The position numbers were made by a program, and so were the translations under genes. Under the pieces are notes generated by a model. It searched no databases. It was not told the origin of the DNA and worked only from the letters and a program-made list of their open reading frames with translations. Positions 18,431-62,578 of a DNA stretch of 64,000 nt are shown here, piece after piece. This DNA comes from Eledone cirrhosa (lineage: Eukaryota): NCBI GenBank assembly GCA_964016885.1, contig OZ024742.1:219790001-219854000 (forward strand), written 5' to 3'. Within the stretch, counting starts at the first letter, position 1. Each line of letters opens with the position of its first letter.

Positions 18431-19690
18431 TAAAGGTAAATATTTAAATAATTGTTTCTACTTTTGGCACAAGGCCAGCAATTACCCAGTGCATTACTGG
18501 TACTTTATTTTATCAACCCCGTAAGGATGAAAGGCAAAGTTAACCTCGGCGGGATTTGAACTCAGAATGGCAAGGACCGTGAAAGATATTTAATGAATAA
18601 CTTTCTATTTGAAATATTCCATACAGTTTTCCAAAGATGCTAATGTTCTAAATAGAGAATTTACATTTGTTAAAATATTCCAATCCATGCCAGCATGTAA
18701 AAATGTTTGTAAAAAAACTGATGATGATGATGATAATTCTATCAGCTTTAACCAGTTATCAACTACATCAAATGAAGAGAAAAATTGTTAATATGTATCA
18801 CAGCTGTGATACTATCAGGCAGTTTTACCAATATGGAGCCTTCAAATCTATTGAACCATAATGGTAATACTAAAAAAACCATTAGTTCATATGTCAGCTG
18901 TCATCCACTTCTAAAAGTGAACCAATGTCCAATAAGTAGAGTTCAGAATCTAATTTAGAATAAAAGATATGCTTAAAAAACACACACACACACACACACA
19001 TCCATATGAGAACAGTTACTACTTTATGCATGCTTATGCAAGCAGGAAGTAATTTGAAGCATAAATAAAATTACATTGTAATTTCTTTTTACTTTATATA
19101 TATAGATATTCTGTCTAACTTATACTAGCATGGAAAATAGATGTGATGATGATGACTAAATACACACACACACACACACATATATATATGTAGAAGTTAT
19201 ATTTAATTTGTTGGGATACAACAAGCAAATATTTTTATAACTGATATAAAGCACTCAACAAATTATTTAACGGCTTAATTTAAATGTACTGGGATTTAAA
19301 CCTCTCCGGCACTAATTTGCATAATAGACCAATAATAAAATTAGTAACCCCACTATCTGGGAGCTTCCAACTGACATGGTTGCATTCTTTAAGGGTATGT
19401 CAATATTTGTTTATAAAACTATATTATATTTTATCTGATGAAAGCGCACCATAATTTGTTTTGGTGTCCTTGAAATATGTATAATGAAATAAATATGGTT
19501 TTATAAATATAGTTTCCATTTGTTAATATATTGTAAATGTTAATATACTGTAAATGTGGTTGGTGTTAGGAAGGGCATCCAGCTGTAGAAAACCCGCCAG
19601 ACAGTTCTATGCGAACAAGACAACCACTCTTGCCTCAAGTGGGAAAACTCCAGTCCAAACCCATGCAAGCGTGGAATATGGACGTTAAAC

Positions 19691-25772: not shown

Positions 25773-25954
25773 ATGCAGTAACACTATGAAAGAAAACAAT
25801 TATAATAAAGAGATGATGGAGTAGGAAGGGATTATATAAAAATAAGAACTAAGAAATACATTTCTAAAGGAGAGAAAACTATAAGATGCCAACATAAACC
25901 AGAAGTTTCAATGGAAATAAATAATTAGAAGTTCTAATGATATTTCTCACTACA

Positions 25955-26430
25955 TGTAGCAAGAAACTGTATATCAACATATCCTCATAGAAGACAGTGT
26001 TTACATATAGCAGGAAGCTGTATACCGAAATATCCAGGAAGCTGTATATCAAAACATGTAGACACTGTCTATATGTATCAAGAAACTGTATATCAACATA
26101 TCCTCATAGAAGACAGTGTTTACATATAGCAGGAAGCTGTATACCGAAATATCCAGGAAGCTGTATATCAAAACATGTAGACACTGTCTATATGTATCAA
26201 GAAACTGTATATCAACATATCCTCATAGAAGACAGTGTTTACATATAGCAGGAAGCTGTATACCGAAATATCCAGGAAGTTGTATATCAAAACATGTAGA
26301 CACTGTCTATATGTAGCAAGAAACTGTATATCAACATATCCTCATAGAAGACACTGTTTACATATAGCAGGAAGCTGTATATCAAAACATGTAGACACTG
26401 TCTATATGTAGCAAGAAACTGTATAGCAAG
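25955..26430. repeat. 119-bp tandem repeat, about 4 copies
   Basis: ORFs repeat at a 119-bp offset (25997, 26116); the unit is built from aagaaactgtatatc/aggaagctgtata sub-repeats. Confidence 0.95.
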
Positions 26431-26795
26431 ATATTCTCATAACTGCCAGTGTCTACAAGTAACAGGAAGCTGCATATCAAAATATCTCCATGGCATGATA
26501 TTGCCCACATGTAACAAGAAGTTGTATATGAAGATATCATCAGACAGTGTCAAATGGCAACAATGCAGGCTAGAAAGGACCTGACAACTCTGATGCCTTG
26601 ATAAAATGCACCCAGTACACTCTGTAATTTGGTTGGTGATAAAAAGGCCTTCCGGCTGTGGAAACCATGCCACAATTGCAACGTACATGTGAGATATAGT
26701 TGGTGACGCATCTAAATGAGCAGTAACCCTGAAGAAGAACTAACTTGAACCCCAATGACCTGTCAACATGAAAACTGAATGTAAAAGGGTAATAA

Positions 26796-26964: not shown

Positions 26965-28090
26965 TAAATATATATTCCCCTCAGGGAAATGGCCTTGCTC
27001 AGTATGTAGGAAAGGTGTAGGTAGGAACTCCATTCTCTGCCCCAAATGCAAACAATGGGTACACAAGAGATGTAGCGGGATCTCAGGAAGCTTAATTAAG
27101 AATGTAGGATTCACATGCAGCAGCTGTGCTGAAACAGCAAGCAAACAGCCACAGGAAACAAGTACCACCAATCTCTGGGAGGGCCCTGTAGAAACAGTAG
27201 ACAGCTTCTGCTACCTAGGTGACCGAATTAGCAACGGAGGTGGGTGCTCAGAAAGTACAATAACTAGGGTAAGAATGGGATGGAAGAAGTTTAGGGAACT
27301 ACTACCACTGCTAGCTGCAAAAGGCTTCTCCCTCAGAATGAAAGGCAGACTGTATGATGCGTGTATCCGAACAGCGATGTTGCATGGTAGTGAGACCTGG
27401 GCGCTGAAGGTGGAAGACTTACGTAGATTAGAGAGAAACGAAGCCTGCATGCTCCGATGGATGTGTAACAGTAATATACGTGAACGACAAAGCATAAAGG
27501 AATTGAGAGAGAGACTGAGCATAAGAGGAATCAAATGCTGCGTGCAGGAGAGGCGGTTACGCTGGTATGGACATGTGATGCGTATGAAGGATGACAGCTG
27601 CATAAAAAGGTGCAGAGCACTAGAAGTTGATGGAAACCGCGGAGTGGGGAGACCCAAGATGACTTGGGATGAGGTGATAAAAGCCGACCTTACCCAACTA
27701 CACCTCTCAAAGTCAATGACACACGACCGTGACTTCTGGCGTCACGCAGTAATACAGGGTACCCGACCTCCCATGGGTACATGCTGAAGCATATAAACAA
27801 TATGCCCCCCCCCCCACCGCAAGGTGGCCGTGGAGGTGCCACGGCAAAAAAGCACCCAGCCCACACTGTAAAGTGGACGTGTAGGCGCCACGAAAAAGCA
27901 CCCAGCACTCACTGTAAATGAGGTTGGTGTTAGGAAGGGCATCCAGCTGTAGAAATCAAGCCAGATCAGTTCCTGTATGAGCAAGGCATGGTCAGCCGAC
28001 CAGACACTGCCCACAACAGGACAACCCGTCTAACCCATGCTAGCGTGGAAGAACGGACGTAAAACGGTGATGATGATGATGATGATGATG
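26965..28090 (+). mobile_element. 5'-truncated RTE-clade LINE, young copy (ORF C-terminus, 3'UTR, (GAT)n tail)
   Basis: Uninterrupted frame [17 protein letters not shown]...FCYLGD...[17 protein letters not shown]...[11 protein letters not shown]...GRPKMTW to stop at 27787; tail (gat)n at about 28068-28090. Confidence 0.9.
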
Positions 28091-28576: not shown

Positions 28577-28880
28577 TTTCATTTTACGTCCGCTTTTTCC
28601 CTGTTTGCAAGGGTGGGACGAGAACTGGTTCTGGCTTGATTTCTACAGCTGGATGCCCTTCCTAACACCAACCTCATTTACAGTGAGTGCTGGGTGCTTT
28701 TTTGCAGTGGAATGATATGGACCCCAGTCCCTATCATCTCATTTCTACAGCTGAGTAAACTGGAGCAATGTGAAATAAAGTGTCTTGCTCAAGGAAACAA
28801 CACATCACTCAGTCTGAGAATTGAACTCACAACCTTTCGATTGCAAGGCCAATGCTCTAACCACTAAGCCATGTGCTTCC
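28577..28880 (-). mobile_element. Same SINE family as 19783-20125
   Basis: Near-identical reverse-complement copy. Confidence 0.85.
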
Positions 28881-42544: not shown

Positions 42545-43770
42545 GGTGTTATACACTGTAGGAGGTGTTACATTCACACTGTAGAGGGGAGGTGTTACAC
42601 TCATGTTGTTGAGGGGGGGGTGCTACACTCATAATGTAGAGTGGAGGTGCTACACTCACACTGTAGAGGGAGTTGTTACACTCATACTGTAGAATGGAGG
42701 TGTTACACTCATGTTGTTGAGGGGGGTGCTACACTCATAATGTAGAGTGGAGGTGCTACACTCATATTGTAGATGGGAGTTGTTACACTCACACTGTAGA
42801 ATGGAGGTGTTACACTCATGTTGTTGAGGGGGGTGCTACACTCATATTGTAGAGTGGAGGTGCTACACTCATATTGTAGAGGGGAGTTGTTACACTCATA
42901 CTGTAGAATGGAGGTGTTACACTCATACTGTAGAATGGAGGTGTTACGCTCATACTGTAGAATGGAGGTGTTACACTAATGTTGTAGAGGAGAGTTGTTA
43001 CACTCATGTAGAGGAAAGGTGCTACACTCATGTAGAAAGAAGGTGCTACACTCATGTAGAAAGAAGGTGCTATGCACATATTGTAGAAGGAAGGTGCTAC
43101 ACCCATATTGTAGAGGGAAGGTGTTACACTCATGTAGAGGAAAGGTGCTACACTCATGTAGAAAGAAGGTGTTACACTCATATTGTAGAGGGAAGGTGCT
43201 ACACTCATATTGTAGAGGGAAGGTGTTACACTCATGTAGAAATAAGGTGCTACACTCATATTGTAGAGGGAAGGTGCTACACTCATGTAGAGGAAAGGTG
43301 CTACACTCATGTAGAAAGAAGGTGTTACACTCATATTGTAGAGGGAAGGTGCTACACTCATATTGTAGAGGGAAGGTGTTACACTCATGTAGAAATAAGG
43401 TGCTACACTCATATTGTAGAGGGAAGGTGCTACACTCATATCGTAGAGGGGAGGTGCTACACTCATGTAGAGGAAAGGTGCTACACTCATCTAGAAAGAA
43501 GGTGCTACACTCATATTGTAGAGGGAAGGTGCTACACTCATATTGTAGAGGGGAGGTGCTTGCAACACTCATATTGCAGAAGGAAGGTGTTACACTGACG
43601 TTGTAGAGGGGAGGTGCTACACTCATGTTGTAAAGGGGAGGTGCTACACTCATGTAGAGGGGAGGTGCTTGCTACACTCATATTGTAGAAGGGAGGTGCT
43701 ACACTCATGTTGTAGAAGGGAGGTGCTACACTCATGTTGTAGAGGGGGAGGTGCTACAGTTATATTGTAG
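42545..43770. repeat. 24-28-bp minisatellite (tacactcat[att]gtagagggaaggtgY)
   Basis: Directly visible; accounts for the repetitive ORFs at 42816-43735. Confidence 0.97.
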
Positions 43771-44620
43771 AGGAAAATAAACATTGTCAAATATTTAGTG
43801 TGGCACCACACTAAATATTTGACAATGTTTATTTTCCTCTATATCACATTATAATGAGAAGTTACTAAACTCTGTGAGAAGATAACTTGGTGCATTTTCT
43901 ATTAAAATATTGTATATCGCCACCAAAATAATAAGGTTGATTTAATTAAAACAAATACAATCGATTTGCTCTTTGACATAAGGATATGATCTTTGATAGA
44001 GTTATTTTTAACAAAAATTGATAACCATAATGTATTACACAGACATTTTTCATCAATCAATAATGATTGGGTATCTTCACCTCATTGGTTATGTTACTAA
44101 AAAGTGAAGTAACTAAGTGATTGATCTCTCACTAATATATTCAATATCCATTCATCTAGTTCCAAATTGTTATAATAATTTCTATTATGAAGGTGACAAT
44201 GCCAAAAATCAATATTGACCTTATTGTTTATAAAGGCTTTAATGACTTATTATTTCAACAATCTTACAGAATCACATTTTCTATGACAGAAATGTTGGAA
44301 ATGTTTTATAAAGATAAATAGATTTTAAGAAGCTAAACAGAAAACACGTCAGAACTAGCAATCCTATCTAATGAGCTGAAGAAAAACTGAAACCACTATA
44401 AAATAACTTTATAAATATATATGCAAATCATCATCACCATTTAACATAAATTTTTGCATGCTAGCATGTGTTAGACAAATTGGACCATTATGAGACAAGT
44501 CAGATCAGATGACCGTGTCTTGCTCATACAGAACTGTTTCTGGCTTGGTTTCTATGGCTGGATGCCCTTCCTAATGCCAACCATATTTACAGTGTAGACT
44601 GTAAATATATATACATGTTT

Positions 44621-50358: not shown

Positions 50359-51532
50359 GACAGTATGTGAACATGGGGGACAGTATGTGAACATGGGGGA
50401 CAGTATGTGAACATGAGGGACAGTATGTGAACATGAGGGACAGTATGTGAACATGAGGGACAGTATGTGAACATGAGGGACAGTATGTGAACAAGAGGGA
50501 CAGTATGTGAACATGAGGGACAGTATGTGAACATGAGGGACAGTATGTGAACATGGGGGACAGTATGTGAACAAGAGGGACAGTATGTGAACATGAGGGA
50601 CAGTATGTGAACATGAGGGACAGTATGTGAACATGAGGGACAGTATGTGAACATGAGGGACAGTATGTGAACATGAGGGACAGTATATGAACATGAGGGA
50701 CAGTATGTGAACATGAGGGACAGTATGTGAACATGAGGGACAGTATGTGAACATGAGGGACAGTATGTGAACATGAGGGACAGTATGTGAACATGAGGGA
50801 CAGTATGTGAACAAGAGGGACAGTATGTGAACATGAGGGACAGTATGTGAACATGAGGGACAGTATGTGAACATGAGGGACAGTATGTGAACAAGAGGGA
50901 CAGTATGTGAACATTGGGGACAGTATGTGAAGATGAGGGACAGTATGTTAACATGGGGGACAGTATGTGAACATGAGGGACAGTATGTGAACAAGAGGCA
51001 CAGTATGTGAACATGAGGGACAGTATGTGAACAAGAGGGACAGTATGTGAACATGAGGGACAGTATGTGAACATGAGGGACAGTATGTGAACATGGGGGA
51101 CAGTATGTGAACATGAGGGACAGTATGTGAACAAGAGGCACAGTATGTGAACATGAGGGACAGTATGTGAACAAGAGGGACAGTATGTGAACATGAGGGA
51201 CAGTATGTGAACATGAGGGACAGTATGTGAACATGGGGGACAGTATGTGAACATGAGGGACAGTATGTGAACAAGAGGCACAGTATGTGAACATGAGGGA
51301 CAGTATGTGAACAAGAGGGACAGTATGTGAACATGAGGGACAGTATGTGAACATGGGGGACAGTATGTGAACATGGGGGACAGTATGTGAACATGGGGGA
51401 CAGTATGTGAACATGAGGGACAGTATGTGAACAAGAGGCACAGTATGTGAACATGAGGGACAGTATGTGAACATGAGGGACAGTATGTGAACATGAGGGA
51501 CAGTATGTGAACATGAGGGACAGTATGTGAAC
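50359..51532. repeat. 20-bp minisatellite (cagtatgtgaacatgaggga), about 58-59 copies
   Basis: Directly visible; accounts for the long repetitive ORFs at 50266-51534. Confidence 0.98.
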
Positions 51533-51747
51533 ACTAGGTATTCTAATGTGAAGAAGAAGACACTCAGTCAGGAAGACTCATCATCATTATGAACATAATG
51601 ATGATGATGATTATGGTCAGGGAAATGAACAAATTGAAAATGCTGATGATAATAATGATGATATATTTATGAATACCATTACAATGGTGAAGGTGATGAT
51701 GGTGATGTGTTAAAATAGATATGAAATTCAATGACGAAATTACTTAC

Positions 51748-59615: not shown

Positions 59616-60545
59616 AGTGGGGTGACTAGAATCCTTATAAATATACCCAAGCATTTTACTGGTCCTTTTAGCTGAATCCATAAAATGGCTAGAGAATAAG
59701 TTCCGACCATGGAAACAGAATTTGGAGTAAATTTAGACAAAACTAAAGTGCTAGTAAGTAGGAAAGAAGAAAGGACCCTGATTTCCCCAGGAAAGTGGTC
59801 CTGATTAATATGTAAAAAAGAGCAAGCATAAACTCTATTCGATATACACAATGCAAGTCTTGGATACACAAGAGATGTAGCAATATATCAGGTAGATTAA
59901 CAAGAATGGAAGAATTTGTATAGAGATGTTCAGGGGTAATCAAGGAGAAGACCATCAATGATATAAACCTATGCCAATCACATGAAGGATCCATAGAAGT
60001 GGTTGATAGCTTCTGCTATCTAGGTGATCTAATTAACAGTGGAGGAGGGTGCTTTGAGAGCATAATAGCTAGAATAAGGATAGGATTGAAGAAGTTTAGA
60101 GGCTACTCCCACTGTTGATAACAAAAGGTTTCTCGCTATGTACAAAAGAATATCTGTATGATGCCTCCGTGCAAAGTGCAATTATGCATGATAGTGAAAC
60201 ATGGGCAGTGACTGGAGAGGACATATGTAGACTGGAGAGAAATGAAGCAACCATGCTTCGTTGGATGTGCAATGTAAATATGAGAGAATGGAAGAGTTTG
60301 GATGAACTGCACATGGATGATGATCACTGGGTGAAGACATGCCAAGAAATCTCAGTGAAATGAAGCTCTGCTTGAATTAGACCAAAGAAGACCTGGGCAG
60401 TTGTGGTGAGAGCTGATCTCATGTCATTGAGACTTACAGAGGAAATGATGAAGGAATGCGGCATGTGGAGAAATGCTGTGCTAAAAAGGAACCATTCAAC
60501 CCATAGAAGCATGGAAAAATGGATGTAAAAACGATGATGATGGGA
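59615..60545 (+). mobile_element. Decayed RTE LINE 3' part
   Basis: [51 protein letters not shown] and RPKKTW, with a gatgatga tail. Confidence 0.85.
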
Positions 60546-60547
60546 TA

Positions 60548-60864
60548 TCATCATCATCATCATCATCGTCATCATTTTACGTCCGCTTTTCCCTGCTTGC
60601 AAGGGTGGGACGGGAACTGATTCTGGCTTGATTTCTACAGCTGGATGCCCTTCCTAACACCAACCTCATTTACAGTGAGTGTTGGGTGCTTTTTTGCTGT
60701 GGCGCCTACACGTCCACTTTGTAGTGGAAGGATAGGGACCCCAGTCCCTATCATCTCATTTCTACAGCTGAGTAAACTGGAGCAATGTGAAATAAAGTGT
60801 CTTGCTCAAGGAAACAACACATCACCCGGCTGAGAATTGAACTCACAACCTTTCGATTGCAAGG

Positions 60865-60868
<4 letters not shown>
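60548..60868 (-). mobile_element. Same SINE family, 5' head truncated at the hammerhead-array insertion
   Basis: Matches the family up to ...ttcgattgcaaggccaa; the expected tgctctaaccactaagccatg is replaced by (TA)n. Confidence 0.8.
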
Positions 60869-60900
<32 letters not shown>

Positions 60901-60906
<6 letters not shown>

Positions 60907-61370
60907 GAAATACGTCCTTTCACGCACAAGGCGCCAAGGTACGCATGTATTGTCCAACCAAGTGCCAATGTGGTTCAATGGCGGGTTAATAAATTAACGA
61001 GCCAGAACAAATATAAACAAGGTTTAGTAAATAATGAAAAAGTTTCAAAATAAATTTTAAAAAATTGACTTTACCTACTATAGTTACCTTTACCGATCGG
61101 TTTCGAATCCCAAAAATAAAACGGAGACCATACGGCCGTATGGTCTCCGTTTTATTTTTGGGATTCGAAACCGATCGGTAAAGGTAACTATAGTAGGTAA
61201 AGTCAATTTTTTAAAATTTATTTTGAAACTTTTTCATTATTTACTAAACCTTGTTTATATTTGTTCTGGCTCGTTAATTTATTAACCCGCCATTGAACCA
61301 CATTGGCACTTGGTTGGACAATACATGCGTACCTTGGCGCCTTGTGCGTGAAGGGACGTATTTCATATTA
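60901..61370. repeat. 470-bp near-perfect palindrome (235-bp arms, no spacer)
   Basis: Centre TACGG|CCGTA at 61135/61136; ends taatatgaaa (60901) and tttcatatta (61370); one mismatch seen at 60918. Confidence 0.95.
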
Positions 61371-61584
61371 CTACTACCTCCACTAACGTTGAGAACAAAC
61401 CGGGTCATTCCGACTGCTGCTGGCAACAGCGGTGGCTAGTTTGACCTACCTCCTTTTGCCTCTATCTTTGCTATGGCCCTTGATAAACCTGTTCTACATC
61501 ATCCACTCTCATCCCAGGAACAGTTTTTGATAGCGCTAGTTTGTGATTTAAATTCAGGAATTTTATATTCTTTGAATGAAAAGA

Positions 61585-61668
61585 ACCTTCTGACGAGAAT
61601 CTCTCTTTGCAACGAAGGCCGTATGGTCTCCGTTTTATTTTTGGGATTCGAAACCGATCGGTAAAGGT
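61585..61668 (+). ncRNA. Type I hammerhead ribozyme, copy 1
   Basis: Stem I ACCTT(61585-89)/AAGGT(61664-68); core CTGACGA(61590-96); stem II GAATCTC/GGGATTC with a hairpin extension; core GAAA(61650-53); stem III A-CC-GATC-GG-T; cleavage triplet GUA, predicted cut after 61663. All conserved core nucleotides are present. Confidence 0.85.
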
Positions 61669-62067
61669 AACTATAGTAGGTAAAGTCAATTTTTTAAAAT
61701 TTATTTTGAAACTTTTTCATTATTTACTAAACCTTGTTTATATTTGTTCTGGCTCGTTAATTTATTAACCCGCCATTGAACCACATTGGCACTTGGTTGG
61801 ACAATACATGCGTACCTTGGCGCCTTGTGCGTGAAGGGACGTATTTCATATTACTACTACCTCCACTAACGTTGAGAACAAACCGGGTCATTCCGACTGC
61901 TGCTGGCAACAGCGGTGGCTAGTTTGACCTACCTCCTTTTGCCTCTATCTTTGCTATGGCCCTTGATAAACCTGTTCTACATCATCCACTCTCATCCCAG
62001 GAACAGTTTTTGATAGCGCTAGTTTGTGATTTAAATTCAGGAATTTTATATTCTTTGAATGAAAAGA

Positions 62068-62151
62068 ACCTTCTGACGAGAATCTCTCTTTGCAACGAAG
62101 GCCGTATGGTCTCCGTTTTATTTTTGGGATTCGAAACCGATCGGTAAAGGT
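62068..62151 (+). ncRNA. Type I hammerhead ribozyme, copy 2
   Basis: Same sequence as copy 1, offset by 483 bp; predicted cut after 62146. Confidence 0.85.
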
Positions 62152-62218
62152 AACTATAGTAGGTAAAGTCAATTTTTTAAAATTTATTTTGAAACTTTTT
62201 CATTATTTACTAAACCTT

Positions 62219-62296
<78 letters not shown>

Positions 62297-62578
62297 CAAG
62301 GCCATATATATATATTTTTTTTTTTATGTGTCCGTTTCTTTCTTTAGTGTTATGCGATAGTATTTTGTTCTGTATGTAAGTCAATTTTGAGTGGATACTT
62401 GAAGGCGTAGTGTTTTGCCATGTATGTAGGTGAGCCTGCTTTCTTTTGAGTTTCAGATCAATGTTTCTTCCAATTTTCTTCTAAGCCATTATTATCTTGC
62501 CTGGTGATTAACACAAGTGGCAACTAAATTAAGAATTATATAAAGACCTATTCATATATACATATATATATATATAAA

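Follow-up and report, generated by a model that had tools for sequence, protein, structure and literature searches.

Metazoan non-LTR retrozymes, as described from mussel, coral and axolotl by Cervera and de la Pena (2020; PMC7229834), are non-coding tandem repeats with a type I hammerhead in each unit, and the same paper treats their circular RNAs and names Penelope-like elements (PLEs) as candidate helpers. Minimal hammerheads and a proposal of circular intermediates for PLEs themselves appear in PMC4209133. According to PMC8557442, PMC3846280 and PMC4209133, the EN+ PLEs Neptune, Poseidon and Naiad form partial tandems with an inverted, 5'-truncated arm, a one-ended tail, a (TA)n context and a minimal hammerhead with a palindromic helix III. 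In vitro work on Poseidon of Anolis (Frangieh et al., 2024; PMC11167929) found two internal reverse transcriptase (RT) start sites that bound the tail, cutting and extension of both target strands and AT-rich targets; hammerhead mutants had no effect on insertion, and unprocessed RNA was the main template. The retrozymes treated by Li, Clavereau and Pollet (2026; bioRxiv 10.64898/2026.07.22.740005) are non-autonomous and PLE-dependent; of nine retrozyme dimers from Xenopus, eight showed no cleavage in vitro.

Here we describe a 483-nt hammerhead repeat in the microsatellite-rich, 3.0-Gb genome of Eledone cirrhosa, starting from one copy in a 64,000-nt stretch (the window). The family resembles the retrozymes of PMC7229834 in its non-coding tandems with a type I hammerhead per unit, a GC content under 45%, target duplications that are long where they occur and co-existing PLEs. 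It differs in unit length (483 nt versus a quoted 150-450 bp) and in its PLE-like hammerhead (5-bp stem I, 7-bp stem II, 39-nt loop II and 4-bp palindromic stem III), the stem sizes of which match the minimal PLE type of PMC4209133; mussel retrozymes lack most of the tertiary contacts between loops 1 and 2 (PMC7229834). In the 483-nt family, cleavage and circles are predictions from sequence; its fixed double ends and mirror arms have no counterpart in the passages of PMC7229834 that were compared. The unit falls within the 51-972 bp range of Li et al. and, as in their definition, hammerheads occur in two consecutive units. The Xenopus case is built on co-occurrence and pLTR homology, whereas ours is built on insertion anatomy, with no homologous pLTR found, and the 483-nt arrays, unlike the Xenopus retrozymes, look born multimeric. 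The EN+ PLE features listed above all recur here, and as in Poseidon the putative RT start sites lie downstream of the predicted hammerhead cut; the differences are the lack of an RT/GIY-YIG ORF and a 108-nt two-hairpin tail in place of one of 30-40 nt.

The kind of element, the circle model and the link to Penelope are already published; the family is new. Our literature search, with most subscription papers and Repbase outside its scope, returned no account of this family, no report of pairing in which the two arms take one kind of end each, and no description of (TA)n addition by PLEs. Since the family is young, short and present in hundreds of copies, its ends can be counted, and they record directly how Penelope-type chemistry moves a retrozyme: a two-armed insertion combines a short with a long end, carries a single haplotype and shows no halt at the ribozyme cut. 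The 483-nt unit with its defined start sites also offers a substrate for in vitro tests.

A two-armed insertion with tandem hammerhead units

An earlier note on the window described an identical 483-bp tandem spanning 61134..62224 with two complete type I hammerhead folds. TRF confirmed the period of 483, the 100% match between units and the start of the array, and moved its end to 62226 (2.26 units, or 2.3 copies by TRF); a descriptor search recovered both folds at the positions claimed. The unit has a GC content of 39.5% and is numbered here from the predicted cut, with 61664 as +1. In each hammerhead a 5-bp stem I (ACCUU/AAGGU) is followed by CUGACGA, a 7-bp stem II including one U-G pair (GAAUCUC/GGGAUUC), a 39-nt loop II and GAA; stem III is formed by the palindrome ACCGAUCGGU, and the cut triplet GUA ends at 61663 and 62146. 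The Rfam hammerhead models that the earlier note had proposed as a check gave no match at the gathering threshold or at E<=10. Folding energy alone lies within chance (z = -1.38 for the 84-mer). Support for the hammerhead comes from conservation and covariation. The descriptor has three matches in the window, the third weaker, at 19435; this hammerhead-like sequence (19427-19491) resembles a motif at L125:5516 and is probably a decayed copy.

The array also has a feature beyond the earlier note, a 235-bp inverted arm (60901-61135) that forms with the forward arm a palindrome centred at about 61135/61136, with one mismatch, at 61353 (Table 1). The forward arm ends at unit position +80 (62226) and the inverted arm at +188 (60903). 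Together with a 12-bp target duplication outside both arms, the inverted arm identifies the repeat as a single two-armed insertion. The left duplication shares sequence with a tRNA-like match at 28810-28873; heads of tRNA-like SINEs lie there and at 60831-60869, the second cut off at the left duplication.

Identical units and a near-perfect palindrome could be read as an assembly artefact. We consider this extremely improbable, as the same layout recurs at dozens of loci with different flanks, and contigs from four public runs include the junction between successive units as well as ends joined to TA at 61743 and 61851; these contigs come from one study, possibly of the source sample, and do not span the window locus itself.

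Table 1. Features of the insertion, in window coordinates
Feature	Position	Strand	Remark
Left 12-bp target-site duplication ATTGCAAGGCCA	60856..60867	+	Truncated end of minus-strand tRNA-like SINE
Left (TA)n tract	60868..60902		Inside duplication
Inverted arm, from unit +188 (60903) back over the cut (61090/61091) to 437	60901..61135	-	One mismatch versus forward arm
GGCC palindrome, head-to-head arm joint	61134..61137		Within loop II hairpin
Forward arm, 2.26 identical 483-bp units	61134..62226	+	Ends at unit position +80
Hammerhead 3' half, substrate side only	61134..61185	+	Lacks CUGACGA
Type I hammerhead fold 1	61585..61668	+	Predicted cut after 61663; descriptor and conservation
Predicted 483-nt monomer RNA, +1 to +483	61664..62146	+	Bounded by the predicted cuts
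Short fixed 3' end (+80), putative RT start site 1	61740..61743	+	51/88 fixed-end arms; TA-joined in contigs
108-nt tail between +80 and +188 ends	61744..61851	+	Two hairpins; motif common to sister families
Tail hairpin 1, GUUC-UGG/CCA-UU-GAAC	61746-61781	+	
Tail hairpin 2	61808-61844	+	
Long fixed 3' end (+188), putative RT start site 2	61848..61851	+	37/88 fixed-end arms; TA-joined in contigs
Type I hammerhead fold 2	62068..62151	+	Predicted cut after 62146; descriptor
Right (TA)n tract	62227..62294		Inside duplication
Right 12-bp target-site duplication ATTGCAAGGCCA	62293..62304	+	

A dispersed, young retrozyme family

The genomic copy number called for in the earlier note proved high: a 21-mer from the hammerhead core has 1,234 exact matches in the genome (control 0), and the first 100 of these fall in 47 loci, which extrapolates to about 580 loci in all. 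We examined 83 distinct loci, comprising the 40 best matches and the remainder in order along contig C1. L025 was left out as a duplicate of L020 after the analysis of variants in 31 arrays described below; the two represent one insertion and its local duplicate, separated by 3.4 kb and sharing their flanks. Identity among copies of the family is about 85-100%; arms extend to 4,911 nt and runs to 10 units.

The retrozyme reading of the earlier note is borne out. The family is a short head-to-tail tandem, dispersed and without protein or LTRs, with a hammerhead of conserved core in at least two consecutive units (which the Rfam models do not score), a GC content below the 45-50% limit for retrozymes and, at the window locus, a long (12-bp) target duplication. 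We are thus highly confident in assigning the window array, as a young copy, to a dispersed non-LTR retrozyme family. The earlier note had left open whether the array was a retrozyme or a Penelope terminal repeat; the retrozyme side holds, and what it missed were the Penelope-type ends, the mirror arm and the duplication.

Two other candidate features of the unit were discarded. A 63-aa ORF running through the hammerhead is not conserved: its ATG is a minor allele, and deletions that are common among copies disrupt it. A Pol III B-box-like sequence, GGATTCGAAACC, is lost in an older 490-nt subfamily.

Two fixed 3' ends, one per arm

The first 56 loci comprise 92 arms, of which 88 stop at one of two positions, +80 (51 arms) or +188 (37 arms), and continue into (TA)n. 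Thirty-three of the insertions are two-armed and head to head: 28 combine a +80 with a +188 end, two are +80/+80, and three have an unassigned end. One end of each kind is therefore present in 28 of the 30 assignable insertions (p=4e-7 against an expectation of 0.5), the two +80/+80 insertions breaking the rule. The 27 further loci include eight two-armed insertions, four of which were scored +80/+188 by script and a fifth by eye, with a truncated arm in the other three and no same/same pair; two more short +188 arms were found by eye. In the older 490-nt subfamily, ten two-armed loci examined by eye comprise six with a short and a long end and four with a truncated arm, the query for these loci favouring short ends. 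In Poseidon in vitro no strand difference in start sites was seen (PMC11167929), in contrast to the division between arms seen here. Twin priming, with one arm started at +80 and the other at +188, is the probable origin of this pattern, and the 108-nt two-hairpin tail between the two sites is likely the RT-binding signal.

The two arms of an insertion agree at 462 of 468 subfamily-diagnostic sites, whereas 26.7% disagree between loci; this common haplotype fits one RNA molecule and one source locus alike. Two fixed 3' ends, a one-ended tail, an inverted 5'-truncated arm and variable 5' ends are all features of PLE-type insertion. At the head-to-head junctions the arms overlap by 0-9 nt, sometimes with a short filler.

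The junctions bear on another origin of the mirror arm, fold-back self-priming at a palindrome with the two ends produced by endonuclease resolution; both processes have been proposed for PLEs (PMC3846280 and PMC8557442). The window insertion does fold exactly at GGCC, and about 4 of the 33 two-armed loci have near-identical 5' coordinates and fold at one coordinate as it does. In about 29 of the 33, the arms stop at unrelated positions of the unit, which is impossible by fold-back, and we regard this origin as very improbable for the family. A single-arm insertion at L019 shows a different arrangement (1085-1135 and 2064-2110), in which the 5' end is followed by TA and a ~45-nt inverted copy of its own left flank.

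The template of the arrays

All 51 of the +80 arms run across the predicted cut, 35 of them at least twice. The template must therefore have been unbroken at this point, as either a circle or an uncleaved multimer. The 5' ends are spread evenly along the unit, with 8 of 88 near the cut where 5.5 are expected; a pile-up at the cut, which would indicate cleaved linear templates, was not seen. Units within an arm differ by 0.55%, and loci differ from one another at a median of 13 of 483 positions. Of the rare variants in 31 arrays, 94 occur in one unit, 15 in all units and 8 in some units of an array, with rarity assessed in a sample of about 50 loci out of roughly 580. From this uniformity and variant pattern, arrays look born uniform from one monomer sequence, for which a circular monomer template is a simple explanation.

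We considered whether a single inserted unit could instead have been amplified locally in the DNA by unequal crossover, the satellite route proposed in bioRxiv 10.64898/2026.07.22.740005. The 8 variants common to some units of an array are what such a process would leave. Since 94 of the 117 rare variants occur in a single unit only, there has been little block duplication; the youngest arrays, with zero differences, already contain 2-5 full units, and an insertion can have multimers in both of its arms. Amplification after insertion accordingly seems a very poor candidate.

A more serious alternative, though still an unlikely one, is that the template was an uncleaved linear multimer transcribed from a uniform source array, with a hammerhead that is slow or used elsewhere. 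Read-through of the cut site fits it equally well, the lone hammerhead is predicted to misfold (see below), and Poseidon inserts in vitro from unprocessed RNA with no need for hammerhead activity (PMC11167929). Against it, a linear template would leave arrays no way to lengthen, but arms as long as 4,911 nt occur; many haplotypes occur, each as uniform arrays, with the 15 rare variants fixed in every unit of 11 arrays; and the hammerhead core and pairing have been retained across subfamilies. We therefore favour the circle as the template over the uncleaved multimer, if with some reserve. The claim of the earlier note that the array records reverse transcription around a circle thus agrees with the uniformity and the read-through, observations that an uncleaved multimer would also accommodate.

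Conservation of the hammerhead and related repeats

Loss of the core or stems among other genomic copies would have told against the hammerhead. Across the 83 loci, the 11 core bases are free of any variant common to at least three loci, and the one stem position that often varies, through C423T, still forms a U-G pair. A test for selection on the hammerhead gave a Fisher p of 0.026 overall and 0.19 outside the search 21-mer that had been used to pick many of the loci. In the older 490-nt subfamily (L189, L193 and L213-L242), about 71% identical and with the same two ends, all three stems are kept, and the centre of stem III has changed from AT to CG and is still palindromic.

Two sister families, with units of 459 nt (L110:6183-6800) and about 520-545 nt (L053:302-930 and L159-L188), are homologous to the 483-nt unit past the cut, with 1 and 0, respectively, of 500 shuffles scoring as well. 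The tail hairpin motif that they have in common has 5,879 matches in the genome and is more abundant than the 483-nt family. Among 24 sister-family hammerheads, 99% of cells are paired and three stem II pairs have changed on both sides, supplying, with the pairing kept in the 490-nt subfamily, the stem covariation that the earlier note had sought; against shuffles, this reached 0 of 500 for cells and for score, and 73 of 500 for pair count. The two tail hairpins are predicted in three families, with changes on both sides of hairpin 1 between families. In all, the clan comprises at least four related families or subfamilies, with more than 7,000 motif matches in the genome.

Other hammerhead repeats show no clear post-cut homology to the unit (L119:7500-8300, L155:2400-3250, L071:409, L125:5516, L128:614, L145:2720 and L118:8023). 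These repeats, which comprise 511-nt and 310-nt tandems and several single copies, often abut the same (TA)n tracts.

For the lone motif, the hammerhead fold is predicted at -21.5 kcal/mol, 2.1 kcal/mol above an inactive alternative that pairs CUGACG (-23.6 kcal/mol), and the duplex formed by the stem III palindromes of two motifs is predicted at -16.6 kcal/mol. With a misfolding single motif and a stable duplex, these energies suggest that cleavage would occur as a dimer in tandem transcripts and that the circle would stay quiet.

Autonomous Penelope-like elements and the presumed helper

The genome contains 10,596 candidates with RT and GIY-YIG, of which 150 were scored (GIY-YIG search, Pfam). 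Autonomous families A, B, C, D and G encode RT and GIY-YIG and have minimal hammerheads and two ends each, family B with ends at +82 and +143 being an example of the layout. Two-armed autonomous copies pairing a short with a long end were seen by eye in all five (five copies in B, two each in A, D and G, and one in C), and two further family B loci have truncated or diverged ends. In families B and D the start of the ORF directly follows the long end; the 483-nt unit has the same end layout without the ORF. Several PLE candidates carry the CxxxxCxxC linker given for Neptune/Nematis in PMC8557442. There are at least seven Penelope-like RT families (L109, L111, L112, L119, L121, L127 and L128), some with U3-A8 core hammerheads.

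The family is likely mobilised by a Penelope-like RT/endonuclease, and this link rests on the insertion anatomy. No PLE end bearing the unit sequence or the tail motif was found at 50 GIY-YIG loci or 20 family-G loci. In an alignment-based comparison with the unit, which sampled few of the 10,596 candidates, families A and B were not significant and C was marginal (8 of 300 shuffles); the tail motif was absent from the equally limited sample of families D, E, F and G. Of the autonomous families compared, only B resembles the unit in sequence, and there the likeness is limited to stem I and a portion of stem III. Pattern searches for a family-A arm ending at the common TAAACCTTGTTT gave 0 matches, those for three short-stem-II hammerhead patterns gave 0, 1 (control level) and 0, and that for the tail motif with a downstream ATG gave 24, none with an ORF after the tail. 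CTCGT, which the unit has in common with PLE tails, was rejected as a link, being absent from the sister families.

The units might themselves be 5'-truncated pLTRs belonging to some autonomous Penelope-like element that the search missed. PLEs share the ends, the tail, the inverted arm and the TA context, and the helper search covered a small sample (150 of 10,596 candidates scored). This reading is nonetheless very improbable: head-to-tail runs reach 10 units with no ORF between them, and none of the 83 insertions contains an RT and GIY-YIG ORF between pLTRs or any PLE protein match, such matches being confined to four flanks, in neighbouring elements beyond the element's end. The long end is also not followed by an ORF, unlike in families B, D and G.

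In the 64-kb window no PLE protein match was found. The nearest Penelope-like ORF fragment (L048:9046-9807) lies about 11 kb from the insertion and about 9 kb past the window end; it is about 50% identical to family G and is not joined to the window insertion.

A model of insertion

The explanation we prefer, and think reasonably likely, is a young hammerhead retrozyme insertion in which a borrowed Penelope-like RT/endonuclease copied one RNA, probably a circle, from both sides of the target. A tandem array would be transcribed on the plus strand; adjacent hammerheads would probably associate via the palindrome of stem III (10 nt) and cleave 3' of GUA, and the released 483-nt monomers would be closed by a host ligase, the predicted misfold of the lone motif sparing the circle. 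The PLE protein would then likely bind the two-hairpin tail and nick both AT-rich strands about 12-16 nt apart, and cDNAs would be primed at +80 and +188; these ends are observed, and the enzymology is proposed by analogy to Poseidon. Each RT would copy upstream past the cut site for a variable distance, leaving the observed footprint of up to 10 units. Finally, the cDNA 3' ends would join head to head via 0-9 nt of microhomology, or one arm would join the target directly; junctions of these kinds are observed.

(TA)n tracts at insertion sites

Insertions lie in the AT-rich, (TA)n context of PLEs, with a median TA tract of 34 and 38 nt on either side (83 loci). A unique duplication outside both TA tracts was found at 2 of the 83 loci, the window insertion and L009 (control 4 of 6,806), and at 0 of 29 and 0 of 20 loci in related families. 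At the window locus and L009, a duplication outside the TA indicates that the tracts arose during insertion or later; the majority of copies are embedded in longer TA tracts, where a duplication cannot be read.

These tracts allow a more elaborate proposal, in which a dimeric Penelope RT on one circle would use two start sites flanked by hairpins, one per target strand, with telomerase-like addition of (TA)n before rolling. If true, reiterative (TA)n copying would mean that the elements build the microsatellites that they supposedly target. We hold this to be doubtful. The idea is weakened by the long end of family G, which continues into (TA)n even though it lacks AUAU; on the same observation, the presence of AUAU at all RT start sites was rejected. 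Family A has a (TA)7 run within its own short end, ahead of the tail.

Other repeats in the window include minisatellite arrays at 42561-43773, 50359-51533 and 25950-26488 (27/102-bp, 20-bp and 119-bp periods, respectively), and LINE-like element fragments recognised by eye at 26975-27787 and about 59690-60500, the first of which has a PHD finger match.
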